Source: Giardia intestinalis (Eukaryota). Taken from it: a stretch of DNA of 64,000 nucleotides. Positions within the stretch are counted from its first letter, which is position 1; each line of letters opens with the position of its first letter. The notes beneath the pieces are model-generated. The model searched no databases and was not told where the DNA came from. It was given only the letters and a program-made list of their open reading frames with translations. Shown here piece by piece: positions 3,949 through 64,000 of this stretch. The stretch lies in the NCBI GenBank assembly GCA_000002435.2, contig CM018793.1, one strand, 5' to 3'. The translations under genes were made by a program, and so were the position numbers.

Positions 3949-4212
3949 CCACTTTTTAAAATGCAACACCCTCCATTCGCTGTCGATACCCACTGCTCTG
4001 CATACCTTCTTCTATACGTGCACGCGGTGAAGTGCAACTAACACGCAGAAATTGCCCAATCAGTCATGAATATCAAGAGATAAAATTGTATCTACAAATG
4101 TACCTTAAGCGGCGTAGTACCGCACTTGCTCTATTAAAGCGTGTCACTGTTAGATGGCGATCAACATATAGTAAGCTACTGCTAAACAAGAAGACAAAAT
4201 GCGTATTTCAGA

Positions 4213-4635
4213 ATGACGAGATATCGCGTAACGAGTTTTTTGAGAAAAGAAATGCTTGTTGTCCTCTTAGCCACAGCGACACTTGCGTCTTATGCAGATA
4301 GATATATCCTCAACCCAGGTGGGCATATGTTTGCAACATTCGCCTCGTATGACTTAACAATTGCTACCTCTTCTGATGTGATTAATGTCTTGCCAAGTGG
4401 TCTTTGCGAGGAGACGCCTAGCATAGTTCCACAAGAACAATCATATATTCAAAGCTTGATCCATGAGAGAGAAGCCCTCAGAACCAAAAAGGAGGTGCTT
4501 CAAAAATTCTCACACCAGGCTCCAAAGGCCATCATGGCAATGGATGCAATCCAGCAGAAAATAGATGAAATTGAATCTAAAATACAACAAGCTCCAATCC
4601 TCTATGATATAGTAGACACAGACTTAACGTCTTGA
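4213..4635 (+). CDS. small hypothetical protein with hydrophobic N-terminus (possible signal peptide or TM) and a C-terminal coiled coil
   Basis: This 140-aa ORF lies in the about 1.1-kb divergent spacer between the ankyrin gene and the EF-hand gene. An internal ATG at 4252 (MLVVLLATATLASYA) has a strong AT-rich context (ttttttgagaaaagaaATG). No homology was recognised, so coding status is uncertain. Confidence 0.3.
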   Translation: MTRYRVTSFLRKEMLVVLLATATLASYADRYILNPGGHMFATFASYDLTIATSSDVINVLPSGLCEETPSIVPQEQSYIQSLIHEREALRTKKEVLQKFSHQAPKAIMAMDAIQQKIDEIESKIQQAPILYDIVDTDLTS

Positions 4636-5103
4636 GGCCCATCACAATCGAAATCCCAGTGAATCAAGTAAATTATCAATTAGACCTGGTTCATATATTT
4701 ATTTCTGGGCATTCCCTGCGTCACTCCCTGCAGGATTACTATCGTTAGCAGACACGCAGGGAGCAAGGTTCATAACCAAGACCTCATTTATAATACAAAA
4801 CTCTCCCTTCTGTCCTGGATTGTCCAGGAGACGTGTTGTTGGAAGAGTTTCGCGGTGAATCTGGAAGATGTTATTACCCGCGGTACCAAAGGACAAGTCT
4901 GGAACGTCAAGGTACGAAGGCAGCTTGAGAGGGAGGCGTATTTGTGTGCTAGGAGCCGCAAGCCCAGAGTCTAGAGATAGCAAGTAGTATTCTTCACTCA
5001 CGACATCCTGGGAAACAATCTCCTGCATGCCCCAGATCAAGGTGTTTCGCAATTTTTGATAAGATCTTGTGTCTTCACTTTTTTGAAAGAAAAACCGATT
5101 CCG

Positions 5104-16139: not shown

Positions 16140-17528
16140 ATCACTTATTTTTTAAATCGCGCCCTCACCTTTTTCAATCAAGATAGCACTGTGAGTATAA
16201 CAATTGCTCACGATTGGCAAAGGTATGCAAGGCTACAAAAGATGTACGCATCAGTAACACCTTGTAATTATGCCATAAGAACTTGTACGACTTAGTACTG
16301 CTTTACTGAATCCATAGTGCTATTTGCTCACCAAGCTTTTGCACATACCACTGATACACACGAATGCTGGGTATGTTCTTGCATCTAATTGTACCAATCG
16401 ATATGTAGTTTAGATAGATTGTAATTTTGCGGACGAAGTATCGTCTTCTATGCTGCTTCATACTGCTGCGCATCACCTTGTTGTAGTAGGAATCCTTCTT
16501 TAGGTTTTTGTGTCTATTGCTCTACTCATGCTATACTGAGAGAAACATCGACTGTCTGGAGCAGTGCAAAAAGCTTCCTAGCTGCAGGGTATTTCCGGAG
16601 TTTGAATAAGGAGTGTCTCCGGAGCGTGTCCCTTTCTAGGTTATCACCTGCCATTTCTGGTATACCGCCAAATGATGTACAAACTTTCAAGTCAGTGCAG
16701 CCGGTCTCAAGTTAATAGCAGCAACGCTCCTAGATGATAAAATAGCCCCAGAGGTGTTATGAAGCCAGTACATGGAATAATTTTATCTAAAGGCTCTGCT
16801 ATGCATGCATACTGTCTCAATGGTTCCAAGATAGTTGTGATCACTTGCCTTTAAGTGAGATGCTTGTAGTGCGGTGTGCAACCGCAGCAGACGTTGGCTC
16901 CGCTGCCACGTAGATCTTAAGCAATGATCTGTAGCATCCACAAGTATGCGGCTAGTTTAATATTGATCATAAACTGGAATGCCTTAGTCCGGCTGACTAT
17001 CACAAGTGACTGTGCAAAGATATGGGCACTGAGTAAACGGATATAACTAAAGAGAGCGGAAGTTATAGGGGTGCAATGCTCACTGACAAGTTGGAGGTTG
17101 AGGTACAGAAAGCTTCAGTCACCCTCGAGGTCCGTTCTCTTGTTACCATAAAGCATATCTGACATTGGTAGTAAGTATAGAGAGAAGGTTGTTACCACAA
17201 TACACACTTAGAGTAGGAGGTTTCGATAGACCAACCTTCGAATATGACGTATCCACAAATAAGAGCAAGACTTTCATAGAGAATTGAGGAGGTAGGACAG
17301 CATCAAGGCGCTCAACCTGGGCAAGGTTTATAAAACCTGTAAAGGACAGGTTGCAATCAAACTATCAAGTATTGACGTCAAAACCTTTTACACAATTCCT
17401 CCTTCTATCAAGACACGACACTAGTGTCTACTAAATTGGGCTCGACAAGCATAGCCGTCGTATTTCATGTTAATAAGCTAAAATGTTTTATCGTTTAATT
17501 CTTTGAGTAGCCAAATCAACGTATTGAT

Positions 17529-19040
17529 ATGCTAGTACTACTACTATTTTCTATTGCTTTGGGATGTGCCCTGGGTACACCTTTTACTAACGAACCTGAA
17601 CATGGAATGGGTGTCCGCTTCACCCGACGCGGACTGGAGAAGTTCTGCCAGAAGGGCTACTCTATCATTCCTGACGTTATCTCTGCTCTTCCAGCGTTTC
17701 CAGAGATACCCATAACTGTCGGGATTTTGCAGATTACTCTCTCCAATATCAGACCCCGTGCAGTGCGTGTTTCAACCATGAAGGTTTATTTGCAAGACAA
17801 CAACTTTGTCAAGATGGAGGCTCGGGACGGCATCATGCAGATCTCGATGCGGCTTAAAACTACCATTACTGGGATCACCGGGACCGTCGACTGCATCTTC
17901 ACCCTCAAGGACTTCGGGGCAGACATCTCCCTGAGGCTCGGAGACGACCCCACCTGCCCGTACCATTTCGGGCTTTCCGAGATATCGAACGTCGTGTACT
18001 CGTCTGGGCTCGACATCGATGCCATCGGACTTGACACGGGGGGATCTGTCCTTGCAACTGCCATCCAGGGCATGGGGCCCACGCTGGAGACCCTGGTGAA
18101 GGATACTGTGCTGCAATTCCTTTTAGATACCATCTTTAAGTCGATAAAGCAGTCAATGCTTAACCTGCCCATAGTTGTCCAGATCAACAATGACTACATG
18201 TCTGACCAGCGCTACATCAATGGCATCAATGTCGTCGATAACAAGATAGTGGCAGACCAAGGTGGCTTTTCAATGATCGTTGCTATCCCAGATTGGTCGG
18301 TCAGAGCTCTCTATCCAAACAAGATCACCTCTCCCCCTCCGAAGACAGTCTACACCGACAGGGACTATGAGTTCTATGTAGACAGGGAGTCGGTCAACTC
18401 CTACCTGTATGCCTGGCACGTGGCGTATGACAAGTTCAAGGCAGACGGTCTCACTGTCCCGTACAGCACCATCAGGGGGCAGAACATACCCGGCCTTGCA
18501 GAGGCTCTTGTGAAAGCAGGCATGTTAACCGATGTCAGTGATCCCGGAAATGATGTCACCCTGACTCTATCGGTCAGTCCCTCCAAGGATGCCGCACCCC
18601 ACATCCCGTGGATCGGGGCAGCTGCACTGTTGACCAATCTCACAGGAACACTTGTTGTGACAACCAGCAAGGTATCAGGCCAAACTCCGGTGACTTTAGC
18701 CAATCTCGAGGGCAATGTGCTCTTCTCTTCTGCGGTCAAGCTTAGGAAGTTTACCTACGGGTTTAACAACGACCAAGTTCGTGCATATGCAGAGTTCCTT
18801 GATGTGTACGATATTGCCACCAAGAAGCACAGCGAAGGGATGGATGATCCTGTTCCTCTACTGAAGCGTCTTCTTCTAGATAAGTACCTCCCCCTTGTTA
18901 ACCCGATCCTGGCCGAGACAGGGGTGGCCCTCATGAACGGGAACTTCATCGACTACGCTACCATCGACACTGTTTATCTGTGCAGCGAGGACAGAGTGCT
19001 CTTTGTTGCTGACATCGAGAAGAATCGATATTTTTCCTAA
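17529..19040 (+). CDS. secreted BPI/LBP/CETP-family (bactericidal/permeability-increasing-like) lipid-binding protein
   Basis: There is an N-terminal signal-peptide-like MLVLLLFSIALGCALG. The following 480 aa or so repeatedly match my recollection of the BPI N-terminal barrel (GVRFTRRGLEKFCQKGYSI vs RISQKGLDYASQQGTAA; VGILQITLSNIRP...; DCIFTLKDFGADISLRLGDDPTCPYHFGLSEISNVVYSSGLDID vs [40 protein letters not shown]). The start is a true ATG. Confidence 0.55.
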   Translation: MLVLLLFSIALGCALGTPFTNEPEHGMGVRFTRRGLEKFCQKGYSIIPDVISALPAFPEIPITVGILQITLSNIRPRAVRVSTMKVYLQDNNFVKMEARDGIMQISMRLKTTITGITGTVDCIFTLKDFGADISLRLGDDPTCPYHFGLSEISNVVYSSGLDIDAIGLDTGGSVLATAIQGMGPTLETLVKDTVLQFLLDTIFKSIKQSMLNLPIVVQINNDYMSDQRYINGINVVDNKIVADQGGFSMIVAIPDWSVRALYPNKITSPPPKTVYTDRDYEFYVDRESVNSYLYAWHVAYDKFKADGLTVPYSTIRGQNIPGLAEALVKAGMLTDVSDPGNDVTLTLSVSPSKDAAPHIPWIGAAALLTNLTGTLVVTTSKVSGQTPVTLANLEGNVLFSSAVKLRKFTYGFNNDQVRAYAEFLDVYDIATKKHSEGMDDPVPLLKRLLLDKYLPLVNPILAETGVALMNGNFIDYATIDTVYLCSEDRVLFVADIEKNRYFS

Positions 19041-20765
19041 ATCTTGCATCACGTATATCCTCGCACGTCGAGGGTTCAGTCTGTACCATATGAACGGCTT
19101 GACTGAACGAACGCGTGTCTTATTAGTAACACTACTTAGTAGTAAATGTTTGTAGACCTCCTCGGCGAAACGCCTTAGGCCAGGGCTTCTGAGCATCGAC
19201 GTGCACCGTCGCACTGATGATGCACAGGAGCATGAGTCTTCTCCAATGACGAGGACAAGCGGACCGGGGAGATGCGTGTGCTCGTGAGCTCCTGGGCTGG
19301 GCTTAGCAGGGTCGGCCGATGGACGTTTGCAATCACAGACCATGACATTGAGAATGCATCTTCAGCGTGTCACAGATAAGCCCTGGTATCCCTGAGCTCT
19401 GGAACTGCAAACCGGATCCCGTGCAGACATGTGGGCGTTGAACTGTATACTGAGCCGCGGACGCTTGCTTTGTTCCTTGATCCTCGGGATTGGATACATG
19501 GTCACTAGCGATTGACTGTGCTCCCTGCCAAATGCACCAGCTATGCGCCGTCATGGCTGCACACATCCATTCACAGTATGCGATGTGCCTACTATCCGGG
19601 TAGACACTAATCCTTAGTCGCAGAGGCTACTTGCAGATACGCTCAGCCACTGCGGCCTCTGACTGTATCTGTGTACTGGGGCAGCTCCGTGCATGCCTGG
19701 GCCCTTGTCGTGCAGCTACCCTTTGCCTACAAGCGTCCACTTGCACATGCTAGCCTGACTGCTGTCGACGCCCCGTGTGTCCAGCAGGCGTAGTTACAAT
19801 GAAGACACAGGCTAATGACCACTATGCAGTCGTTGACACACGAGTAACAGCTGTGCCGTGCAACTGCAGTCGATTCTCACCATTTACTAGGCACCAAGAT
19901 GAAAGTGACGCACTGTGGGACCTACGCCTTTGTGTGCCTTAGATCTACGACCCTCGATCCTAGTGTTGGTTCAGAGGTCTCTTGCTTGACCACAGTGGGG
20001 GTCTTGCAATGGTGTGCTCTCAGTCCCCATGGTCAAGATAGGGTGACTGGTATGAGTCACGACGCATATCCTGCTCATGCTCAGACAGACGGACGCTCCA
20101 GAGGCTCCGAAATACACGGTGCTCTCCTGTTCTGTGGGAATCGGTATGCTCAGGGATACCCGGGACTTGGATGTGTGTCCGGGTGGGCACCAGGCACTCC
20201 GGCAACACTGGCGGTAGAGTGGGATAGGAGACAGGTGTATTCTGTCGGGTGCTGATGGCAGTGCTCCCGGTGGCCATCCACTACACGTGCCCGTCCGTCT
20301 CATAAGGCCAGGTTGGCCTGCACAGCCCCTCAATGTGGTCAGCTAATGGGAGACCCAGTGGAAGAGAACCCTCGGAGACCGGAATCCATGGGAGACGGGT
20401 GGACTCAGACACTGGTCATGCAAGGAGCTGCCATAGCCCTATCGAGCTCCAGCATTTGCTTGAAGCAAAAAGAAGGTTGTTCTGGTAGATTCAGGACATG
20501 TCGGAACCATCAGATCTAGTAGAAGGAGACAAACATGAATACTATTTCATAGTGAAAACATTGTCCAGCTAGTGGCCACCATTTTTTCACCTTGGAAACA
20601 ACGCTTGAGGCCCCATACATTCAGTTAATGGTCATGAATAGTGGTACTGTGTAATAATTCTATGCCCATAGTAGTTGGTATTGGCGTTTTGTTAGCGCAA
20701 GAAGGTCTAGTTCAGCCATATCTGTGCACTAAAAATTTAAATAAAGAATTTAAAAATACCCTCTC

Positions 20766-21626
20766 ATGCATTTAGCGCAATCACTTGAAGAGCTCATTGC
20801 ATCGAGAAATGTGCAAGATGCGGTTAAATTTACAGCTGCAATGACCCAGGAGCAAAGGCTCACCATATCAGAAGACTTTCAAGAGCAATATGGCTCAAGT
20901 GTGGGAGATCATATTAGAAAGCTGATGTCACCATCAAGTTCCACCTCTCTTCTAATAAATATGTGGCTTCCTACAAAGATACTCCGTTTGCGTGTGTTAG
21001 AGCGGAACTTTAAGGAGCTCGTGCCTCTGGAGCTAGCGCACTGTGCAATCACCTGTCCCCAAGAAGAATTTGTAGAGATCTGCGACATTTACAATACTAC
21101 GGCGAAAGCCTCTCTGTATGCGGGGATTCGCAGGCAATGCATTGGGCCAGAGCCCTGGAAGTATCTCGTTCAACAATGGGTCACCTTCAATCATGGATCT
21201 ATAAGCAATTTGGTTTTTCTGAGAGACCAAGCGCGTTGTGCAATCGAAAGTGTCGACGGGAGGCTCTTCGTGGACACCATTTTCAGCGCAGATCGTACCG
21301 TTTGGCCAGTTGTCTGCAAAGAGTACGAATGCCAATATGGAGCACCACTGATCAAAGACCTAGCTGTGTTTGGTGAGGATTCTGCCCCTATTCTTTCGTT
21401 TGCATGCTTATTTATCTGTGACCAAACGCTAGCAATCTCTTATTTACTCAACCAGTTTATCATGACAGGTGACAATGATGGCGCAGGAATCGTATCCGCG
21501 CTGTATTCGGAAGAATGGCATGGGGTTCCTATGGCATATGTGCAGTATGGTTCTTTGAAAGAGGACATACGTGCCAACTTCAGCTCCCGATACACTGAGG
21601 CACTTGCAACAGTCTGGAAGATATAG
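20766..21626 (+). CDS. alpha-giardin (annexin-like, family E) paralog, first of a + strand triplet
   Basis: The 286-aa protein is built from annexin-like roughly 70-aa helical repeats. Its size, a C-terminal ...YTEALATVWKI and its tandem placement with two clear alpha-giardins support the call. The start is an ATG with a very AT-rich upstream (aaaaatttaaataaagaatttaaaaatac). Confidence 0.65.
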   Translation: MHLAQSLEELIASRNVQDAVKFTAAMTQEQRLTISEDFQEQYGSSVGDHIRKLMSPSSSTSLLINMWLPTKILRLRVLERNFKELVPLELAHCAITCPQEEFVEICDIYNTTAKASLYAGIRRQCIGPEPWKYLVQQWVTFNHGSISNLVFLRDQARCAIESVDGRLFVDTIFSADRTVWPVVCKEYECQYGAPLIKDLAVFGEDSAPILSFACLFICDQTLAISYLLNQFIMTGDNDGAGIVSALYSEEWHGVPMAYVQYGSLKEDIRANFSSRYTEALATVWKI

Positions 21627-23738: not shown

Positions 23739-23985
23739 GAGCAAAGCAAAATTCGTACCATTGTTTACTCTTATAGGAGCCTACGGTCAGTAAACTGCTG
23801 CGGAGCCTGTCCGACGCTCTACTTGCTCCTGGCCTTCATGTGCCGCCTCTTACGCTTGAGCTTGCGCATACGCTTCTTCGCCCACTTCGCCCTCATAATT
23901 TCGTTTTCAAAGTCCTTCTCCTGCACTGTCCTTTTACCGTTTAATGCAGTATTGCTTATGATGCAGAACACAGATTCCCATCAAT

Positions 23986-35493: not shown

Positions 35494-37437
35494 CTATTCC
35501 AGGACGTCTGTCGTTTTCCTGAGATAAGTGGCAACAACGCGGGCTGCCTTATTCAGCACGAAGCGCATTCTATCAATTGAAAAGTAGATCCGTCGTTGAT
35601 ATTTTGATATCGCCTCTATCCGTGTTGCACGGGGAAGCGCGGGCCTGTCATTAAAGTAGGGTACTGCCACATTAGCAATGGCATAGCTCTTAAGAGGTAA
35701 CGACGGAGCAATGATGGACACTTCCAAGAGCACATGTGTGGGTTTAAGAGCCACGTCAAAAGGCAGAATAAACTGAGCTGTTTGCAATAGGTTGCCACTA
35801 CGAGGAATAAAAATAGCATCTGGGTGTTTGTAAAGAACAAAGCATAAGGTCGCCCAGACGAAGTTCCGCTCCATGGGGGAAATCAGCAAGCCATCAGGTT
35901 CATAGAAAAAACACTTCGCTAGCCGCTCTCTTAGTGTGTGTATAGAAGATACATTTATAACAGTATTACCAATCAATAGCAAGGGCTCTACAATGTTACC
36001 GATATAGCGACAACTACTTTGACCGAGTGCAAGAGCATCGGGGCACACAAGCTTAATTACATTAGTCCCTGTTATAAAGGCCTTCATAGCGTGTGGGCTA
36101 AACATCAATGTGTGTAGTTGCATAGCGTTTGTATGTTTAATAGAAGGTGCTGTGCAATTCGAAAACATAGGAGCACAGACACTAGCACCATCCTCTACTT
36201 GGTTGTTGTAGGTATTTGTGGGGTCTTGACCTTTCTCTGGAACAACAGTGTCTTTGGATGGAAGATATGCGCAGCCCTCGCCAAACGGCTTCTGATCTTG
36301 ATGCATGCTCTGACGCAGACGAGATTGTGCTAGTATAGGGAACAGTGCTGAGGATGTTTGGTTGTAAAGGTCATTTGGAGCGCATGAAGAAGAGGTTGGC
36401 GCGGCAATAGGATCCCTGATTGCAGATACTACATATTCTGGCACAAGCCTTTCTCCACGGTGAGAGACCGATGCTGTGGAAGGTCGTATACCAGCTGTAA
36501 CTTTTGGTGCAGAACATTTTGTGGGCAAGGGAGTAAGTTTGTCATAGCTTCCAAGGAGGTAACTTTTGAGATACTGATCGGCAGAGAGGTGGCCGTCCTT
36601 CAATTCATGGCTCCTTTGCTGCAGAGCCATGAGGCATGCCTGAATGAGCTTTTCATTATCTTTAAGCTGTGTCTTCAGCAATTGATTCCGCGAGTCTACT
36701 TCATTGGAGGCTTTTGCAATAGTGCGTCTCAGAATGTCTCTATCTTTGTAAAGATTCTCCAACATTCCATGGAGATCTAAATCAGTTTTCGTATCTCGAA
36801 GCGTGGCGCACAGTGAAGCTGTTTCGGTCGTGCTACTAGTAGCAGCCAGGTCAGCAAGTGTGTTACATTTTGTAGCATTGGCTGATGAAGGCCGCACCAG
36901 GCGAGTACCTTGTGTCCTTTGGCGCTGAGATTGCTCCATCTGCAGTTGCTTGAGCCGGTTATCAAACTCTCCGGCAAAAATGGGATTAGTATTGCTATGA
37001 GACGAGGCAGATGCTTCAGGGCTTGCAGAAGACTTGCTACAGCTGCTTTTCTGAGACTCTCTCCGGTGCCTTGAAGATGTAAGGGGAGACACCTGTCCAC
37101 CGGTACAGCCACGATCAAGAGGGTCAGAGTGATCGCTATCGTCCAGAATGCGCTGTTGTATCCGATATACTTGCGAGGCCAAGGACTCAGCCCGCCGCTT
37201 ACTCCGCAGTTCTGAGATAGAGAAGCTTTTTAGGACATCGTCACTAAGCTGGGCAAGAAAGTCATCCTGCAGCAGCCTGGTCTGGAACTCTGCCACTGCA
37301 GATAGCTGGTCAGCTTGTGGGGGCGGACTTTCGTGGGTTGGAGCTGCAAGGTAGGGCTTTACGTCAAGGATGGTTGCGTCTCGCAGTCGACGGGTGCACG
37401 TCCGCAGGCGCTCGTCGCGAGGGCGGGGGTCCAGCAT
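35494..37437 (-). CDS. hypothetical protein (S-rich linker, coiled coil, conserved-looking C-terminal globular domain)
   Basis: The track ORF begins at a TTG at 37446. The first ATG is at 37437 (MLDPRPRDERL...). There is a coiled coil (LENLYKDRDILRRTIAKASNEVDSRNQLLKTQLKDNEKLIQ) and a roughly 300-aa hydrophobic-core C-terminal domain. I recognised no family. Confidence 0.45.
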   Translation of the reverse strand: MLDPRPRDERLRTCTRRLRDATILDVKPYLAAPTHESPPPQADQLSAVAEFQTRLLQDDFLAQLSDDVLKSFSISELRSKRRAESLASQVYRIQQRILDDSDHSDPLDRGCTGGQVSPLTSSRHRRESQKSSCSKSSASPEASASSHSNTNPIFAGEFDNRLKQLQMEQSQRQRTQGTRLVRPSSANATKCNTLADLAATSSTTETASLCATLRDTKTDLDLHGMLENLYKDRDILRRTIAKASNEVDSRNQLLKTQLKDNEKLIQACLMALQQRSHELKDGHLSADQYLKSYLLGSYDKLTPLPTKCSAPKVTAGIRPSTASVSHRGERLVPEYVVSAIRDPIAAPTSSSCAPNDLYNQTSSALFPILAQSRLRQSMHQDQKPFGEGCAYLPSKDTVVPEKGQDPTNTYNNQVEDGASVCAPMFSNCTAPSIKHTNAMQLHTLMFSPHAMKAFITGTNVIKLVCPDALALGQSSCRYIGNIVEPLLLIGNTVINVSSIHTLRERLAKCFFYEPDGLLISPMERNFVWATLCFVLYKHPDAIFIPRSGNLLQTAQFILPFDVALKPTHVLLEVSIIAPSLPLKSYAIANVAVPYFNDRPALPRATRIEAISKYQRRIYFSIDRMRFVLNKAARVVATYLRKTTDVLE

Positions 37438-37501
37438 ACACAGCAACTTTGCTTTTCAAAGAGAGCTAGAGAGTCTATCCATTCTGCTTCCGGGCAAGCG
37501 T

Positions 37502-37583
37502 GACAGTTTGGCCGAGTGGTTAAGGCGATTGACTAGAAATCAATTGTGCTCCGCACGCATGGGTTCGAATCCCATAGCTGTCG
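37502..37583 (+). tRNA. tRNA-Ser (anticodon AGA), class II tRNA with long variable arm
   Basis: I folded it by hand. The acceptor stem GACAGTT/AGCTGTC has 7 bp including one G-U pair. The D arm is GCC-GAGTGGTTAA-GGC, typical of Ser/Leu tRNAs. The anticodon stem ATTGA/TCAAT carries the loop CTAGAAA, giving anticodon AGA. There is a long variable arm (TGTGCTCCGCACGC), the T arm is ATGGG-TTCGAAT-CCCAT, and the discriminator is G. No CCA is encoded. Confidence 0.85.
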
Positions 37584-37605
37584 CTTTCGCCCCCAAAGAA
37601 AAAAG

Positions 37606-39693
37606 ATGCCCGACTTCGTCACCGAGCGCCTCGCCAAGTTCAACGCCCTGCGTGAGAGGCACGCCGCCTCGCAGCCCACCGGGGGCCCTTTCACTGTCAC
37701 GCTGCCCGATGGAAAGACCACCGAGATCCCCGCAAGCTTTACAGCCCTCGACGTGGCCAAACAAGTCGTCAAAAACAAGAAGGTCTACTCCAAGTTTCTG
37801 GCCGCCGTTAGGGACGACGAGGTCATTGACATGTCTGCAAGATTAGGGAAGACCTGCAAGCTCGAGTTCCTCACCTTTGACGACCCTCGGGCAAGAGAAG
37901 TTTTCTGGCACTCCTCTGCGCATCTTCTGGGCTATGCACTTGAAAAGACATTCCAGGCCCACCTAGGTCATGGCCCGGCTATCGACTCCGGCTTCTTCTA
38001 TGACGCCTTTTTCGAGAACTCTCTGAAGATGGAGCCCGAGAGTCTCCTGCAGCTCGACAAGGCAGCTGCAGAAATCGTGAAGCAGGCCGCAGCAGCACCT
38101 GGCGATTCTCCTGTCCGCCGCTTCACACGTCTCGAGGTGACCAAGCAAGAGGCTCTCGATCTCTTTAGCTATTCGAAACTGAAGTCAGAGCTTATATCGG
38201 ATCACGTGCAAGATGGAGAGATGTGCAGTGTGTACCAGTGCGGGGATTTTGTCGACTTCTGCCGCGGCCCACATATTCCTGACTTGGGTCTTATCCAAGC
38301 CTTCAAGTGCATGTACTCCTCTGCTGCCTACTTCAAGGGCGATCAGAACCGCGAGTCTATGCAGCGCGTTTATGCGGTTGCCTTCCCCAGCAAAGACCAA
38401 CTAGATAAGCACATTGAACTTCTCGAGGAGGCAAAGAGACGAGATCATAGAAATCTAGCCAAGGAAATGGATCTTTTCATGACGCACAAGTATGCTCCGG
38501 GCGCGCCAATGTTCATGAACAATGGCACACGGATCTACCGCAAGCTCGAAGCTTTTATTCGCGAGCTCCTCCATGAGTTTGATTATGAAGAGGTCATGAC
38601 ACCGACGTTTCTCAACACTGATCTTTGGGGTATCTCTGGGCACCTGCAGCATTATAAGGAGAACATGTTCTTGTTAGAACGCAAGGAGAAAACCGATCCC
38701 CAATACGGTCTGAAACCCATGAACTGTCCGTGTCACTGTCTCCTCTATAAGAACCAGCACCACTCAGTACAAGAGCTTCCGATACGGATGGCAGAGTTTG
38801 GAGTTGTGCACCGCAATGAGCTTTCCGGTGCCCTCTCTGGCCTGACTCGTGTAGTGCGTTTTGAGCAAGATGATGCACACATTTTCTGCACCGTTGATCA
38901 AATAGAGCAGGAAATGACTGGCTTGATCGAATTTATCAAACGCGTTTATACACCCTTCGGGATTGACTTTGCTCTATCCTTATCTCTGAGACCAGAGAAA
39001 AAGATGGGCTCCGATGAGCTCTGGGATCGTGCAGAGGGCACCCTTCGCAAAGTCTTGACGAACACCGGCCTCGATTTTAAGGAAAATCCCGGGGATGGAG
39101 CGTTTTACGGCCCGAAGATTGATGTCCATCTAACAGATGCCTTAGGAAGACAGCATCAGTGCGGTACCATTCAGCTTGACTTCAACCTCCCCAGTAAGGA
39201 TAGGTTCGACCTGCTTTACAGTGTTTATGACGAAAAGACAGGCAGCGTGAAGCAGGAGCACCCAGTGATGATTCATAGGGCTATCCTTGGATCCGTTGAG
39301 CGCTTCATGGCCATCCTTATTGAAAACACGGGAGGCCGCTTTCCCTTTTGGATCAGCCCTCGTCAAATTGTGGTCATTCCTCTCCATGGCGAAGATATCG
39401 TTGCATACGCCAAGACCGTCCGCGAGCGATACCATTCAAAGGGCTATTTTGTAGATCTCGATATATCTTCCGAAAAGATGGAGAAGAAAATAGCTGTTGC
39501 ATGGAACAAGAAGTACAACTTCATTATGGTTGTGGGAGCTCAGGAGAAAGGAACCTGCAGTGTAGCTCTTAGTGGCCGCACGCTTAGCGCTTACATCGGT
39601 GAAAAGGACAACCAGCGAGCACGCAAAGTCCTTACCCTAGAGGAAACGGACGCCCTGCTGGCAGAGCTGTCGAGTGGCCGCGCGAACATGTGA
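37606..39693 (+). CDS. threonyl-tRNA synthetase (cytosolic, class II)
   Basis: The protein has an N-terminal TGS-like region, an editing domain, a class II catalytic core (LKPMNCPCHCLLYK, FGVVHRNELSGALSGLTRVVRFEQDDAHIF, HRAILGSVERFMAILIEN) and a C-terminal anticodon-binding domain. The track ORF at 37546 starts inside the tRNA gene at a non-ATG codon. The real ATG at 37606 is preceded by ccccaaagaaaaaag. Confidence 0.92.
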   Translation: MPDFVTERLAKFNALRERHAASQPTGGPFTVTLPDGKTTEIPASFTALDVAKQVVKNKKVYSKFLAAVRDDEVIDMSARLGKTCKLEFLTFDDPRAREVFWHSSAHLLGYALEKTFQAHLGHGPAIDSGFFYDAFFENSLKMEPESLLQLDKAAAEIVKQAAAAPGDSPVRRFTRLEVTKQEALDLFSYSKLKSELISDHVQDGEMCSVYQCGDFVDFCRGPHIPDLGLIQAFKCMYSSAAYFKGDQNRESMQRVYAVAFPSKDQLDKHIELLEEAKRRDHRNLAKEMDLFMTHKYAPGAPMFMNNGTRIYRKLEAFIRELLHEFDYEEVMTPTFLNTDLWGISGHLQHYKENMFLLERKEKTDPQYGLKPMNCPCHCLLYKNQHHSVQELPIRMAEFGVVHRNELSGALSGLTRVVRFEQDDAHIFCTVDQIEQEMTGLIEFIKRVYTPFGIDFALSLSLRPEKKMGSDELWDRAEGTLRKVLTNTGLDFKENPGDGAFYGPKIDVHLTDALGRQHQCGTIQLDFNLPSKDRFDLLYSVYDEKTGSVKQEHPVMIHRAILGSVERFMAILIENTGGRFPFWISPRQIVVIPLHGEDIVAYAKTVRERYHSKGYFVDLDISSEKMEKKIAVAWNKKYNFIMVVGAQEKGTCSVALSGRTLSAYIGEKDNQRARKVLTLEETDALLAELSSGRANM

Positions 39694-60446: not shown

Positions 60447-61249
60447 TCCACAAAGCCATGTCTTATCAATCACACTATCCACCTGTATCTTTATATGCCA
60501 TAGATGTAGGTGTCGTGCGCTTTCTAGTGGAAGCCCTATGTACCCGTCTTGCCCCAACAGCTTATGCACCTCGATACATTCCTTTCAGTAATGTATTACG
60601 GGGTATTGCGGCCTTCACTCTAACCAAGTAGGTTAAGCTACAGCCTCTATTGATGAAAACTAATGAGTAGCTAGAGATAAAGGCAATTAGATAAGGAGAC
60701 CTAAACATATAGAGGTGACGCTTGCGTATACTGCACATCCTTGAGTAGTCTGGTACCAAAATGCATCACTAAACTTTGGTTGAGATTGGCGATGAAGAAG
60801 CAATTCTCTTTTCAGTTTGCAAAGAAGCGTAGCACACACCTAAAAGTAATGTTGAGAATGCACGCATGTGAATACAAATACCATATTACGGGTCAGAGCT
60901 CGGGCACATCAGTGAGAGAACTGTCTCTAGTTCCATTGAAGACGCTCTATTTTTTATCGTAAGAAACTGTAGTCGTGATAACCTTCATAAACTGTTAATA
61001 TCACACGTTGGACAGAGATTACTCCATGTTCCTGTCAACAATCTGTACAAATTTAAAGCACTATCTCATAGATTCCAAAGGTAATATCTGCAGGTAGTGT
61101 GCTCTTCCACAATATAGGGTTTGGTACAATTACTGACAAATCGCTGGGCTATGATACTGGTTACACCTAAGCAAGTGATTTTGGGTTACCTTGACCGCTA
61201 ATACAGACCTTAAAATTGAGGTTTTTCACTCTTCTCCAAATTGGACGAA

Positions 61250-64000
61250 ATGGCAGGCAGAATCAGATCATATCTTCATATTTTCTCTCCCCAACAACAC
61301 CATTTCCCTTTGATAGACCCTGGCGCAAGACAGCTTCCTATGGCCTTGGAAATCCCAGAATATATTTGTCCATTGCATATTTGTGATAATAATCCCACTC
61401 TTCAATCGCTACACCAATCCGAGCCATGTATTTCACTGGCGTCTGAAGCGGGTGGGACTTATTTATTCGACGGAATCATTACAGACCAGACCGTTTACAG
61501 AGCAATGAATAGCGTCTACCTTTATGAACAAGTCGTTCCACCCAATCCCCTGGAGAAACTAGACACTATTGCGTGTGATATTGCAGCCGGCGCTAATGCA
61601 GGAGTGTCTCAATTGGTCGTATCGGCCGGACCGGTTGGTTCTGGCCATGGAACAATAGCATTCAGCTGTCTTCAATCTTCAGTCGCTGCAGATAGAGGTT
61701 CTGCTTCCAGGATATCCGCAGATCAGAGGTGTGGGACCTGCTCGACTTGCGAGTATCAGGGGTCCTACCAGTCTGCAGATCTCAACCAGTTAATAACCAG
61801 TTGTGTAGATGATGCCTTGAAGCAGGTGGGTTCGTCACAACATCATCGCCTACAGACTATGACCCCTGCAAAAGAGCCAATCAGGCGTGAATCCTCACCT
61901 ACTCCTCAGGGGCTCCTTTGGCGAATACTTAAGCACCTCACCTTTGCTAGCAACAAGAATGACACAGAGTGGCCTAAACTGGCTTGTTTCACTCTCGATA
62001 GCGGGCAACAGGTTATGGATCTTCTCGACTATCCCGGAATTACCGAGGCTTATGGGATGGGAGACCATCTCGATATGCAGTCTATAGACTATGTGGATTG
62101 TCCAGACAAATCAGTAGAATATCAGATGTATACTGAAAAGTTTGGTGATAGAGCTCAGACCTTCGAAGGAACAGCATATGGAAATGTCCATGACGCAGCT
62201 TCAGCCTTCTTAGCGAGTGGAATTGTACAGCCAGGCGCTAAGGACCTTACTCTACCATTCCGCAAAGCCATGTCCATGTCGCAGCACTTCAATCCCTTAA
62301 AATCAAGCGTAATAAGCAATTCTAATACATTTACGACAAGTGGCACTGTGCTAGAAAAACGCACTAATGCATCTGGTACACTTCACATCCAATCGCTATA
62401 CCCAGACGATCCTCAAGACCAATCTGGAAGTAAAACAACCAGATCTCATGTGAGCGAGCTATCGGTTGAGGCTAGAACTTATTTAGGAGCCACTAGCCAA
62501 TCAGCAATAAGAAAAATGAGGCTTATCTCTACCATATCTACTAAGACACTTATCAAGGCTCTGTCAAAGCCATCACTTGTTACACTCAAAACACATAATG
62601 GGCTAATAACACCAGAGTGTATGGGTAAGTCTGGCTTAAGGATACTCAATCTTAACCCGTCATCTCTCTCATTGCTAAAGCGATCTCTCTCTGATCGTAG
62701 ACGACCAATTTGCACATGGGACGAGCTCATGAGTGTTTCAGATGGCACTGCACAGCGTAGAGGAAGCGAGTTGGAACTTCCGTGTTTACTGAATATCCGG
62801 AAGCAAACGGGGTTGCCAAATTATGTTCTTGCTATGGATTCTTGTGGGCCCACAGTAGTGGTCATATACCTTGGTCCTTCACAGGCTTATTCATGCATTA
62901 TCTTCGTTGACATCTGCACATGCACAACTCAGACACCACTCCAGCAGTTCTCTCTTAAGCCACAATTTAAAACTAGCCTTGAGTCTTTAGCAGCTCTAAA
63001 GTCGCTTGTTGATAACCTATCTACTGAAAAACGTGCATCGCAACCGGCAAAAGCATACATGCTTACGCGTTTGATACTAGGTCATGTTCCCAACCTATCA
63101 CTGTCTTCCAAAGAAGCGAAGCGATCAGTTCAGCATGTACCTACCACGCATCGATTTACATACTTGCAGGATATTTGCAAGTCTACGCAGAAGGCATCTG
63201 GTCAGTGTATGTATAGAGAGGCTGATACTGCCTTGGAATCAATAAGTATTTCAGATTCAAATCTGAATGTTGCTGAAGAGCACGATACACTCTCAGATGT
63301 CTTAGATAATGATCATATCCACGAAAGCGCTCTTCAACAGATTTCTGACTCTGTAAGTACAGATCTTCCCGGAATTAACTATGCCCCGCGTGATATAACA
63401 TTTATACACAGCGTGCAGATATGCGAGACGGATGCCAAGAACACACTACAGCAGCTGCGCTTAGCCTCTTCTCTGGACAAAAAAGTGGAGATGGGATTCT
63501 ATTGGTCTACTCAGCTTTACAATGACGCTATGTGCTTAGCTCGCATAGATCTTCTGCAAAAGGAAGGAGATGATAACCTGTCCAGCATGCCTGTAAGTCA
63601 TATAAGTGACCAATATGATTCACAATCTGTTGCAGACTGCAAAGAGAACCCTTATGCATCCCATGGCTCCCAAGTGAGTCGCAGCTGCACTGTTGTCAAT
63701 CTGGTACGACCGGATCAAGGCGATACGCTCGATAGCAATCTAGTTTCAGCTTATGATAAACTGCAAACTAACAAGGAGGATAATTGTGGCGAGTCAACGG
63801 TCATGAATTCTGGTCTTCCAACAAGGAAAGAGGAATCTCAATATAAGAGCTTTTCTTCACCAAGCAAAACTGAAGAAACAAAGGATTTCTTACCTAATAG
63901 ACATCTACCAATCCTGCAATCTCCTAGCGCTCCAGACTCTTCCCAATCTCAAGTCGTCACCACACTATTGCTGCGACTGCACAAATATATAGACAGAGCA
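61250..64000 (+). CDS. partial CDS (5' end present, continues beyond window end), hypothetical protein of at least 917 aa
   Basis: I checked a reading frame with codons at 61250+3n codon by codon. It has no stop from the TGA at 61217-61219 to position 64000. The first ATG is at 61250 (MAGRIRSYLHIF...) and a second at 61340 (MALEIPEYICPLHI...). The gene is absent from the supplied track, presumably because it has no stop inside the window. I recognised no domain. It is S/T-rich with several Cys pairs. Confidence 0.45.
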   Translation, partial: MAGRIRSYLHIFSPQQHHFPLIDPGARQLPMALEIPEYICPLHICDNNPTLQSLHQSEPCISLASEAGGTYLFDGIITDQTVYRAMNSVYLYEQVVPPNPLEKLDTIACDIAAGANAGVSQLVVSAGPVGSGHGTIAFSCLQSSVAADRGSASRISADQRCGTCSTCEYQGSYQSADLNQLITSCVDDALKQVGSSQHHRLQTMTPAKEPIRRESSPTPQGLLWRILKHLTFASNKNDTEWPKLACFTLDSGQQVMDLLDYPGITEAYGMGDHLDMQSIDYVDCPDKSVEYQMYTEKFGDRAQTFEGTAYGNVHDAASAFLASGIVQPGAKDLTLPFRKAMSMSQHFNPLKSSVISNSNTFTTSGTVLEKRTNASGTLHIQSLYPDDPQDQSGSKTTRSHVSELSVEARTYLGATSQSAIRKMRLISTISTKTLIKALSKPSLVTLKTHNGLITPECMGKSGLRILNLNPSSLSLLKRSLSDRRRPICTWDELMSVSDGTAQRRGSELELPCLLNIRKQTGLPNYVLAMDSCGPTVVVIYLGPSQAYSCIIFVDICTCTTQTPLQQFSLKPQFKTSLESLAALKSLVDNLSTEKRASQPAKAYMLTRLILGHVPNLSLSSKEAKRSVQHVPTTHRFTYLQDICKSTQKASGQCMYREADTALESISISDSNLNVAEEHDTLSDVLDNDHIHESALQQISDSVSTDLPGINYAPRDITFIHSVQICETDAKNTLQQLRLASSLDKKVEMGFYWSTQLYNDAMCLARIDLLQKEGDDNLSSMPVSHISDQYDSQSVADCKENPYASHGSQVSRSCTVVNLVRPDQGDTLDSNLVSAYDKLQTNKEDNCGESTVMNSGLPTRKEESQYKSFSSPSKTEETKDFLPNRHLPILQSPSAPDSSQSQVVTTLLLRLHKYIDRA

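Follow-up and report, generated by a model that had tools for sequence, protein, structure and literature searches.

The GC-rich block between a BPI-like (BPIL) gene and the alpha-18 giardin gene of Giardia intestinalis WB probably belongs to an old segmental duplicate of 1.6 kb that is present twice in the genome, and is non-functional or at least not constrained in sequence; we put the probability of this reading at about 0.7. The block contains no hidden protein gene and no structured RNA gene (the missing RNase P/MRP RNA, snRNA or telomerase RNA).

Results

The largest gap in the window is GC-rich over about 1.35 kb

The window (the whole stretch of DNA that was analysed, 64,000 nucleotides) lies on the 4.02-Mb chromosome of Giardia intestinalis WB. 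The stop codon of the BPIL gene, which ends at 19040, and the ATG of alpha-18 giardin (20766) are separated by 1725 bp (19041-20765); among ORFs of 150 aa or more no wider gap occurs in the window, where the median is about 47 bp. An earlier note on this DNA had singled out the spacer for its exceptional size, for its lack of a long ORF and for the many short ORFs that overlap on both strands, and each of these descriptions holds. In particular, no ORF in the gap exceeds 155 aa, and the longest stop-free stretch (135 codons) is what dinucleotide shuffles yield (127 +/- 30, with 32% reaching 135). The 155-aa ORF, the longest in the gap region, lies mostly antisense to the BPIL coding sequence (Table 1), and the corresponding model, GL50803_98220, is absent from the 2020 annotation. 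Moreover, KAE8304690 and KAE8304691 are consecutive accessions, and thus there is no annotated gene between BPIL and the next gene.

The GC content over 19101-20452 is 55.6%, as against 46.4% for the whole window. This is the top 1350-bp GC window, nearly tied by a coding stretch at 37042-38391 (55.6%), and the adjacent BPIL gene is itself 50-56% GC. The GC-rich run quoted in the earlier note was located at 19262-19326. What had been called a GC-rich 1.7-kb island is therefore enriched in GC, but modestly and over about 1.35 kb only (about 19100-20452); enrichment ends sharply at 20452 and the last 313 bp of the gap are AT-rich. Homology to the second copy described below also ends at 20452, and P15 (assemblage E) is 75-85% identical from about 20458. 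Conservation of the spacer 20453-20765 in assemblage B and in locus L017 is confined to its last ~45 bp. Tandem Repeats Finder (TRF) returned only a 13-bp, two-copy AT repeat at 20730-20754, and no direct repeats were found in the block. Two inverted-repeat pairs (19381-97/20148-64 and 19680-95/20417-32) gave BLAST E values of 0.1-0.3 and are not nested, and were set aside as chance matches.

Table 1 Features of the BPIL to alpha-18 giardin interval (window positions)
Feature	Start	End	Strand	Remarks
BPI-like (BPIL) gene GL50803_112630, 503 aa	17529	19040	+	Exact match to KAE8304690.1/XP_001705085.1
Repeat unit copy 1, about 1.62 kb	18832	20452		96.4% identical to L014 10365-8748; sharp boundaries
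155-aa ORF, old model GL50803_98220	18876	19343	-	Mostly antisense to BPIL 3' end; judged spurious
BPIL 3'UTR and poly(A) signal	19041	19160	+	AGTAAAT at 19141-19147 by motif scan
GC-rich (about 56%) non-coding core of repeat	19161	20452		No coding signal, no excess structure, mosaic
Hammerhead_II match, rejected	19163	19231	+	20.5 bits against a gathering score of 37
AGTAAAT	19882	19888	-	Speculatively, poly(A) signal of a sterile transcript running divergently from the alpha-18 promoter
AT-rich (about 39%) unique spacer and alpha-18 giardin promoter, 313 bp	20453	20765	+	Outside repeat
Alpha-18 giardin GL50803_10038	20766	21626	+	Context gene

The BPIL gene belongs to a multi-copy family (described in PMC4570179) with paralogues at least 90% identical in GL50803_112938, 113130 and 61453. 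Its poly(A) signal lies within ACTTAGTAGTAAATGT (19134-19149), which differs from the VSP-type extended poly(A) motif by the deletion of one base. In VSP genes the extended motif, ACTTAGGTAGTRAAYGC, is found within 0-15 bp after the CRGKA C-terminus (PMC3091692); here the variant lies ~95 nt past the BPIL stop codon, and no VSP C-terminus of the CRGKA type precedes it. The element is conserved in DH, in L014 and in both P15 copies, where it takes the form ACTTGGGTAGTAAATAG, a 3-mismatch variant. Since the signal lies upstream of the GC-rich core, a normal BPIL mRNA would exclude the core. Note that AGTAAAT is not enriched in the window (40 matches compared to 36 expected by chance).

The block belongs to a repeat unit that occupies two loci

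The repeat unit consists of ~1.3 kb of GC-rich non-coding DNA preceded by the last 209 bp of the BPIL coding sequence and by the 3'UTR with its poly(A) signal. A second copy, on scaffold L014, adjoins a polysaccharide-lyase gene in a context unrelated to that of copy 1. The A2 pair comprises L006, from the DH assembly, and the metagenome scaffold L014, on which the lyase protein matches DHA2_150118 exactly; these two paralogues are 96.5% identical. In P15 both copies come from one assembly, where L022 15621-16379 and L012 5453-6211 are 98.2% identical. The two-copy arrangement of P15 is homologous to that of assemblage A, with the same left boundary at the lyase locus.

WB probably carries copy 2 as well, as indicated by gene models, accession adjacency and contig breaks. 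GL50803_5135, the twin of GL50803_98220 (94% aa identity), marks copy 2 in WB; its accession (XP_001707511) is three numbers from that of the WB lyase (XP_001707514), and the WB lyase orthologue (KAE8305899) is on the same 4.02-Mb contig as the window. The two repeat copies thus account for GL50803_98220 and GL50803_5135 as a pair of spurious twin models. Short-read assemblies of A isolates (several samples) break inside the block, and those of assemblage B and of one further sample end 286-736 bp upstream of alpha-18, as a result of the two-copy repeat; the P15 assembly spans the locus.

The length of the BPIL fragment differs by copy, from the full gene in WB copy 1 to 82 aa in L014 and 31 aa in P15 copy 1, and at the A2 lyase locus and in both P15 copies the BPI-like 3' fragment is the sole remainder of the BPIL gene. 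We considered the idea that the block is part of a BPIL paralogue repeat and rejected it, as homology to the DH paralogue L013 stops exactly at the stop codon. The surroundings of the block also differ between assemblages. In P15 a NEK kinase gene lies upstream, an intact VSP gene separates the block from alpha-18, and a VSP C-terminal fragment is found at a greater distance upstream; in assemblage B the sequence immediately before alpha-18 contains VSP-like fragments interrupted by stops. The P15 block is 65-74% GC and carries an extra 825 bp that are missing from WB. Neither of two candidates in this P15 sequence was upheld: a 213-aa ORF in the P15-specific, 74%-GC insert is rich in Ala, Arg, Gly and Pro, as is expected of GC-rich non-coding DNA, and has no Pfam match, and the P15 block had no rRNA match even at E<=10, so that an rDNA fragment was dismissed as the origin of its GC-richness.

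The two copies evolve in concert and diverge at or above the synonymous rate

Copies within a genome are 96-98% identical, whereas the A/E orthologues of the block are 62-72% identical where alignable; for comparison, the neighbouring genes reach 72.9% at their third codon positions. Between WB and DH, divergence is 0.057 per site in the block and 0.033-0.059 at the third codon positions of the neighbours. Thus, the block diverges at or above the synonymous rate in the A1 versus A2 and the A versus E comparisons alike. In addition, variable sites form a mosaic in which 41 W, 40 D and 16 copy-2-specific sites fall into 16 runs compared to 41.5 expected, a degree of clustering reached in 0 of 10,000 permutations (p<1e-4). 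The finding that paralogues are more alike than orthologues, together with the clustered mosaic, argues for concerted evolution by ectopic gene conversion, and a repeat that evolves in this manner accounts for the hyper-divergent look of the locus between A1 and A2. Polarised substitutions in assemblage A gave no W>S excess that would indicate GC-biased conversion (62 S>W and 24 W>S); this ratio is not distinguishable from that at synonymous sites (69:42; Fisher p=0.17), and the polarisation is confounded by conversion itself.

The block carries no coding signal

Codon usage in the six frames of the block gave a top log-likelihood of 0.04, compared to a median of 0.17 and a 5th percentile of 0.037 for true genes. 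Among five copies of the stretch 19041-20452, variable sites are distributed over the three positions modulo 3 as 31/38/29 (p=0.50), and the WB-DH comparison alone gives p=0.43. The BPIL coding sequence, in which substitutions are strongly 3-periodic, and four larger neighbouring genes gave p values from 1e-16 to 0.02 in the same test, and the smaller neighbours alpha-16 and a 307-aa gene (19 and 13 substitutions) gave p=0.08-0.09. A six-frame Pfam scan of the block returned no domain, PF03302 included, at E<=10. Searched with phmmer against 1.84 billion representatives, a piece of a plus-strand frame had as its sole match another, near-identical version of this block, and nothing matched a minus-strand piece in a word-indexed protein database of 5.8 billion clusters.

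These results bear on an explanation that we consider unlikely, namely that the block is the relic of a VSP/HCMP-type cysteine-rich gene, or of a gene from another variable family, that was once located 3' of the BPI-like gene and is now too decayed to be recognised. In its favour, synteny breaks at this variable-region locus, with an intact VSP gene and a VSP fragment in P15 and VSP-like fragments in assemblage B, the poly(A) element at 19134-19149 is a variant of the VSP-type motif, and the GC content of the block (55-60%) resembles that of VSP genes. However, CXXC motifs are no more frequent than in shuffles (1 on the plus and 2 on the minus strand versus 3.1 and 2.2, with 16 in frame in a P15 VSP control), and tblastn with five VSP or cysteine-rich proteins produced only non-colinear compositional matches, on both strands. 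Codon scores are never in the coding range, substitutions lack periodicity, the Pfam scan and protein database searches brought up no homologue beyond the variant of the block, and the poly(A) motif is not preceded by a CRGKA-type C-terminus. A VSP or HCMP pseudogene in the form of a recognisable relic is accordingly rejected on Pfam, CXXC, tblastn and C-terminus evidence. Of the decayed gene that had been suggested earlier, the repeat unit does hold a BPI-like 3' fragment, but its 1.3-kb GC-rich core retains no coding signal. Note that the relic explanation concerns the ultimate origin of the DNA and is compatible with a segmental duplicate.

The block is represented in RNA-Seq assemblies

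Logan contig L005, which derives from an rRNA-depleted, strand-specific WB RNA-Seq run, covers 19748-20715, and contig L002, from another WB RNA-Seq run, starts at 20089. RNA-Seq-derived contigs thus cover at least 19748-20765 and the block is not silent, with the proviso that such contigs show presence only, without strand or abundance. Pervasive transcription and transcription from bidirectional promoters have been reported for Giardia. For this reason presence in RNA-Seq assemblies is weak evidence of function, and the signal over the block fits pervasive or bidirectional-promoter transcription best. A minus-strand AGTAAAT (19882-19888) might, speculatively, serve as the poly(A) signal of a divergent sterile transcript.

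It is improbable, in our estimation, that the block is a functional lncRNA or sterile transcript unit, for example one that gives rise to endo-siRNA or antisense RNA against the BPI-like family or neighbouring variable genes. The two WB RNA-Seq contigs, the retention of two copies through the A/E divergence and the 209 bp of BPIL coding sequence in the unit are in keeping with such a role, and VSP-like Girep RNAs provide a precedent for repeat-derived non-coding RNA in Giardia (PMC2817412). Against it stand divergence at or above the synonymous rate, the extra 825 bp of P15, the absence of a structural signal and the slight weight of presence in RNA-Seq assemblies given pervasive transcription. 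Two copies would supply sense and antisense substrates. The antisense or sterile transcript proposed in the earlier note is thus possible, in that RNA-Seq-derived contigs lie over part of the block.

Both copies (about 1.4-2.2 kb) have survived since the A/E split in a very compact genome. Pure junk would not quite be expected to last so long, so that a role that is independent of sequence is conceivable. We give little credence to the idea that the unit has been retained for a role of this kind, such as that of a recombination or conversion site or of a source of dsRNA or endo-siRNA; maintenance at the same two loci through the A/E split, where spacers are about 50 bp, and presence in RNA-Seq data are compatible with it. 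Ectopic recombination or gene conversion may take place preferentially at the unit and so promote turnover of the adjoining cluster of BPI-like, VSP and NEK genes, or the unit may be a bidirectionally transcribed source of dsRNA or endo-siRNA directed against the BPI-like family through the 209-bp coding fragment.

The repeat shows no domain or terminal feature of a mobile element

The repeat is very unlikely to be a fragment of a mobile element, such as the non-coding part of a dead GilD/Genie-2-type non-LTR retrotransposon, or a BPIL read-through transcript that was truncated at its 5' end and retroposed. The copies are dispersed, the BPIL fragments share a 3' end but vary in length, much as 5'-truncated copies would, and retrotransposon sequences are associated with synteny breaks in Giardia (PMC3091692). 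Nevertheless, no reverse transcriptase or endonuclease domain is present in the six frames, the boundaries have no poly(A) tail, target-site duplication or terminal repeat, and only two loci are occupied, the same pair in A and E. Moreover, the BPIL poly(A) signal is upstream of the core, which a normal BPIL mRNA would lack.

No structured RNA is evident in the block

No Rfam covariance model reached its gathering threshold in the block, the sole match in the window being a tRNA-Ser at 37502; the related loci L006, L012 and L014 gave no matches, and the block and its P15 counterpart gave only sub-threshold chance matches. One of the RNA candidates weighed is a type II hammerhead (RF02276), the catalytic core of which consists of CUGANGA, GAAA and NUH: in WB a 69-nt stretch has CUGAUGA and GAAA boxes in the right order. 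It differs from a genuine member in that it scores 20.5 bits against a 37-bit threshold and in that the catalytic GAAA is lost from the other copies, being GAGA in DH, L007 and L014 and absent in P15, and we regard it as a chance match. Our criterion for a telomerase RNA was a template complementary to at least 1.5 (TAGGG)n repeats and conserved in homologues. Only a 7-mer, CTACCCT (19716-19722), was found, of which about one is expected by chance, and the match in P15 is on the other strand at a non-homologous place, so that this candidate too was rejected. Likewise, a tandem repeat of the Girep type, with 7-10 units of 222-228 nt and similarity to VSP genes, was not found in the block.

Single-sequence folding of the block compared to shuffles gave mean z scores of +0.39 on the plus and +0.05 on the minus strand, with z = -2.2 for the segment 19125-19274, and A/E consensus folds of four alignable segments gave z scores from -1.2 to +0.7. 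The exception is the plus strand of 19150-19347, where the consensus fold scored modestly below column shuffles (z = -2.1 to -2.7) and contained 5 compensatory pairs; 13 of its 61 pairs are broken in P15 and the signal is lost after correction for 10 tests. A folding outlier on the minus strand at 20625-20774 (z = -3.25) was discarded, given an A/E consensus z of +0.36 and no support from conservation in assemblage B.

A structured housekeeping RNA (snRNA, snoRNA, RNase P/MRP or telomerase RNA) or a ribozyme, which the earlier note had listed among its candidates, is therefore close to refuted: for it there are the weak hammerhead match (19163-19231) and the folding values at 19125-19274 and on the plus strand at 19150-19347, and against it the lack of any Rfam family at gathering score in the window or the three related loci, the unconserved GAAA, a telomere-like 7-mer at chance level whose strand is not conserved in P15, mean z scores near 0 with no convincing structure conserved between A and E, and divergence that is neutral or faster. 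The absence of an Rfam match and the absence of A/E conservation are also among the outcomes that the same note had named as arguing for a neutral spacer, and they point to neutrally evolving DNA.

Discussion

Our preferred explanation is that of an old segmental duplicate. Copy 1 would lie between the BPI-like gene and alpha-18, and copy 2 just beyond the polysaccharide-lyase gene on the same 4.02-Mb chromosome of WB; the occupation of both loci would predate the split between assemblages A and E. From that time on, patchy ectopic gene conversion, in tracts of about 100-400 bp, would have moved sequence between the two copies, with the outcome that paralogues in each genome are kept at 96-98% identity and the whole unit drifts at a neutral rate between assemblages. 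The GC-rich island would then simply be the extent of the repeat unit. Its GC-richness may have been inherited from GC-rich variable-region source DNA or been raised by GC-biased conversion.

BPIL genes sit in flexible regions with VSP, HCMP and NEK genes (Ankarklev et al. 2015, PMC4570179), and the variable regions of Giardia have a higher G+C content and synteny breaks (Jerlstrom-Hultqvist et al. 2010, PMC3091692). The block resembles such regions (the variome) in its place beside a BPIL gene at an A/E synteny break marked in P15 by NEK and VSP genes, in being richer in GC than the core genome, in its unusually fast A1/A2 divergence, and in the fact that short-read assemblies break in or near it. 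It differs from them in that it is neither a member of a gene family nor a recognisable pseudogene, and in being a defined non-coding unit at exactly two conserved loci with direct evidence of concerted evolution. Overall, the block is fairly ordinary variable-region DNA. Gene-converted low-copy repeats likewise show paralogues (96.5% in A2, 98.2% in P15) that are closer than orthologues (62-72%), mosaic sites and sharp boundaries; textbook cases are mostly multigene families or rDNA, whereas here the tract is mostly non-coding and lies in a compact protist genome. The Girep-1 to -5 elements (Chen et al. 2009, PMC2817412) are also repeated, non-coding, transcribed and linked to variable gene families, but their tandem arrangement and VSP similarity are not shared by the block. 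We found no published description of this particular repeat.

The chief value of the analysis is a clean negative, namely that the largest unannotated gap in the window hides no RNA or protein gene. A modest by-product is a well-delimited case of concerted evolution in a largely non-coding, two-copy repeat of Giardia in which conversion tracts are visible. The sexual and recombination biology of Giardia is still debated, and the repeat could be a handy marker for ectopic recombination and for any GC bias of conversion.

A GC-rich, ORF-free block in the largest spacer of the window

The proteins flanking the block are exact matches to Giardia intestinalis WB (ATCC 50803), and the 4,018,654-bp chromosome record carries both the gene for a BPI-like protein (BPIL), GL50803_112630, and that for alpha-18 giardin. 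The 2020 annotation gives them consecutive accessions (KAE8304690 and KAE8304691), so no annotated feature lies between them. No other spacer between ORFs of 150 aa or more in the window is as large as this gap (19041-20765, 1725 bp); the median is ~47 bp. GC content is 55.6% at 19101-20452 versus 46.4% for the whole window, which places this stretch first among 1350-bp windows, in a near tie with a coding stretch (37042-38391); the BPIL gene has 50-56% GC, and 3' of 20452 GC drops to ~39%. The longest stop-free run in the block is 135 codons, versus 127 ± 30 in dinucleotide shuffles. An earlier note had described a GC-rich 1.7-kb island without a long ORF at 19050-20760; the ORF-free GC-rich block is real, but its rise in GC is modest and covers ~1.35 kb, the last 313 bp lying outside.

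Features of the locus and of the repeat unit (window coordinates)
Feature	Position	Strand	Description
BPIL gene GL50803_112630	17529-19040		503-aa ORF
Old model GL50803_98220	18876-19343	minus	155 aa; dropped from annotation
Repeat unit, part 1			last 209 bp of BPIL CDS
Repeat unit, part 2			BPIL 3'UTR with poly(A) signal AGTAAAT (19141-19147) inside ACTTAGTAGTAAATGT
Repeat unit, part 3			1.3-kb GC-rich core
Alpha-18 giardin ORF	20766-21626		3' neighbour of block

Other spacers of the window were also noted. A second large ORF-free spacer (16140-17528; 1389 bp, GC ~42%) separates a divergently oriented 3208-aa gene from the BPIL gene. It is 96% identical in DH (assemblage A2), gives no blastn match within the locus of P15 (assemblage E), lacks coding potential and has substitutions without periodicity (20/20/13). 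This spacer, the BPIL gene and the block make up a ~4.3-kb segment at an A/E synteny break. The spacer at 3994-5055 (~1.06 kb), where no ORF reaches 150 aa, scores slightly above zero in codon usage on either strand (maximum 0.22) and may contain one or more small unlisted genes. The 247-bp "spacer" after alpha-16 giardin (23739-23985, minus) is the place of a tiny ribosomal protein L41 gene (PF05162), called at the orthologous position in DH (L006 13054-13206) and in assemblage B (L015 3787-3912). Finally, at 60570-64000 a strong coding signal in plus frame 2, from ~61400 to the window end, marks a long gene cut by the window edge and absent from the ORF list.

The block is one copy of a two-copy repeat

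A second copy of 18832-20452, 96.4% identical and inverted relative to the window as fetched, is present on another scaffold (L014), which we assign to an A2-type Giardia from the identity of its lyase protein with DHA2_150118. The context of this copy is unrelated, ~390 bp past a glycosaminoglycan polysaccharide-lyase gene, and its boundaries are sharp; the right boundary of the repeat, 20452, coincides with the drop in GC. Within the unit, ACTTAGTAGTAAATGT is a variant, with one base deleted, of the extended poly(A) signal described for the VSP variable-gene family (PMC3091692). WB very probably has the same two copies, given that an old WB ORF model, GL50803_5135, shares 94% protein identity with GL50803_98220, that its accession (XP_001707511) is three from that of the lyase (XP_001707514), and that the WB lyase lies on the same 4.02-Mb chromosome. 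Because the block is repeated, assemblage A short-read contigs from many samples end within it (at 19085, 19748, 20089, 20283, 20379 and ~20314). The block does not belong to a BPIL family repeat, since the BPIL paralogue locus of DH (L013) has only CDS in common.

The block is neither a structured RNA nor a hidden gene

The earlier note had offered a structured non-coding RNA or a decayed gene as candidates; the block is neither a structured RNA nor a hidden or recently decayed gene. Six-frame Pfam scans of the block gave no match at E ≤ 10, and its codon-usage log-likelihood (trained on window genes) is below the coding range in all frames (maximum 0.04 versus a true-gene median of 0.17). 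When the longest plus-frame piece was compared exhaustively by phmmer with 1.84 billion representatives, the sole match was a 92-aa near-identical variant of the block, and a homologue search with the main minus-frame piece gave no match. Because P15 and assemblage B have VSP sequence just 5' of alpha-18, a VSP origin was tested specifically: there is no PF03302 match, tblastn matches are scattered and compositional, and CXXC counts are 1 and 2 versus ~3 and 2 expected (a real VSP has 16 in frame).

At gathering thresholds, Rfam returned only a tRNA-Ser elsewhere in the window and nothing in three related loci (L006, L012 and L014). A permissive search of the block gave one weak Hammerhead_II match (19163-19231; 20.5 bits versus a gathering score of 37), which we judge to be chance because its GAAA core is GAGA in three other copies and missing in P15. 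A search for a telomerase template in the block found only a chance 7-mer. Sliding-window folding z over the block averaged +0.39 (plus) and +0.05 (minus), and consensus folding of the four A/E-alignable segments gave no signal save for the plus strand of 19150-19347 (z = -2.1 to -2.7 versus column shuffles, not significant after ten tests), where P15 disrupts 13 of the 61 pairs. (Note that the lowest single-sequence z of the scanned region, -3.25, falls on the minus strand of 20625-20774 in the AT-rich spacer upstream of alpha-18; its A/E consensus z is +0.36, and conservation of that spacer in assemblage B is limited to its last ~45 bp. Imperfect inverted repeats of 16-17 nt form two similarly spaced pairs, 19381-19397 with 20148-20164 (750 nt) and 19680-19695 with 20417-20432 (721 nt); the pairs are not nested, have BLAST E-values of 0.1-0.3 and are taken as chance.)

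The block diverges as unconstrained sequence

The gap is also present at the orthologous DH locus (L006). Between WB and DH, neighbouring genes are 97-99% identical and the block 91-97%, or 0.057 substitutions per site, which equals or exceeds the third-codon-position divergence of the neighbours (0.033-0.059). Variable sites among five copies of the block are distributed 31/38/29 by position modulo 3 (p = 0.50); 3-periodicity is strong in the BPIL gene and in the four larger neighbours (p from 1e-16 to 0.02), and the two smaller neighbours alpha-16 (19 substitutions) and a 307-aa gene (13) have the same tendency (p = 0.08-0.09). With P15 the block is alignable only as colinear patches of 62-69% identity; between WB and P15 the neighbours' third codon positions are 72.9% and short spacers 85.7% identical. 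Judged by conservation between assemblages and by Rfam, which the earlier note itself had named among its refuting checks, the block is thus unconstrained.

The P15 block contains an extra segment (~825 bp, L012 5873-6696, 70-74% GC) with no WB counterpart; up to ~L012 6211 it is also found in the P15 lyase-linked copy, whose contig stops there. A 213-aa ORF in this segment encodes an Ala/Arg/Gly/Pro-rich product without a Pfam match and scores marginally in codon usage (0.06-0.16).

The two copies evolve in concert

In P15 the repeat sits at the same two loci as in assemblage A, and its lyase-linked copy starts at the same BPIL position as that of assemblage A, so both loci were occupied before the A/E split. 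The P15 alpha-18-linked block, 65-74% GC, starts with a 31-codon BPIL remnant (L012 5458-5550); an intact VSP gene (L012 8139-9413) lies between this block and alpha-18. Within one genome the two paralogues share 96.5% (A2) or 98.2% identity (E; L022 15621-16379, to the contig end, compared with the alpha-18-linked copy), orthologues of different assemblages share 62-72%, and in the alignment copies cluster by genome, not by locus. Within assemblage A, informative sites (41 W, 40 D and only 16 copy-2-specific) form a mosaic in which the lyase-linked copy matches the alpha-18-linked copy of DH, then that of WB, in alternating long runs (16 runs versus 41.5 expected; 0 of 10,000 permutations reach the observed value). 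Such a mosaic is the mark of ectopic gene conversion acting repeatedly and in patches, in tracts of roughly 100-400 bp, and it also accounts for the apparent A1/A2 hyper-divergence of the locus.

In the BPIL CDS, patches at 18000-18200 and 18500-18800 have 72-86% WB/DH identity and the rest of the gene 95-100%, a pattern suggesting that other BPIL paralogues have donated sequence by mosaic gene conversion. Gene calling split the DH orthologue in two (121 aa and 353 aa).

Representation of the block in RNA

Two Logan contigs overlapping the block derive from WB RNA-seq: L005 (19748-20715), from the rRNA-depleted, strand-specific library SRR17933276 (bioRxiv 10.1101/2022.03.07.483299), and L002 (20089-31247), from WB1B trophozoites (SRR2642202; PMC5224939). 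RNA thus covers at least the block's right half, along with the AT-rich spacer. Giardia promoters have been reported to be bidirectional, and sterile and antisense transcripts to be abundant, so a divergent transcript from the alpha-18 promoter is a reasonable guess. Such a transcript could terminate close to an AGTAAAT on the minus strand (19882-19888); no function is implied. A sequence-independent role for the repeat, as a recombination hotspot or a source of dsRNA, is very improbable, the sole observations in its favour being that both copies have persisted for long and that the block has RNA-seq coverage.

Variable-region setting and origin of the GC content

Higher G+C and coincidence with synteny breaks are known features of variable regions that harbour VSP and other dynamic families (PMC3091692), and BPIL genes are located in such regions (PMC4570179). 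The high GC of the block would be either inherited from variable-region DNA or raised by GC-biased conversion inside the unit. Such conversion would fit two observations: the GC island stops at the very base where the unit does, and P15, with more similar copies, has higher GC. Polarised changes in the assemblage A block (S>W 62 versus W>S 24) do not differ from those at synonymous sites (69 versus 42; Fisher p = 0.17), a comparison confounded by gene conversion, and thus give no sign of a current GC-raising force.

Near alpha-18 in other genomes, P15 has a VSP C-terminal fragment (L012 1640-1850; …GFLCWWFICRDKA*) with the exact extended poly(A) motif, further upstream than the block, and assemblage B has VSP-like frames with stops just 5' of alpha-18 (L015 1-500), where the contig ends. 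Three contigs from Logan (L017-L019, ERR33333xx) carry an alpha-18 variant that shares 85% identity with the WB protein and differs from that of assemblage B; they too end upstream of alpha-18, by 357-445 bp.

The block is copy 1 of a mostly non-coding repeat with two copies, which changes neutrally and whose copies are kept alike by ectopic gene conversion; its setting is the margin of a variable region of a known type. The general phenomenon is already known; this repeat and its concerted evolution seem to be undescribed.
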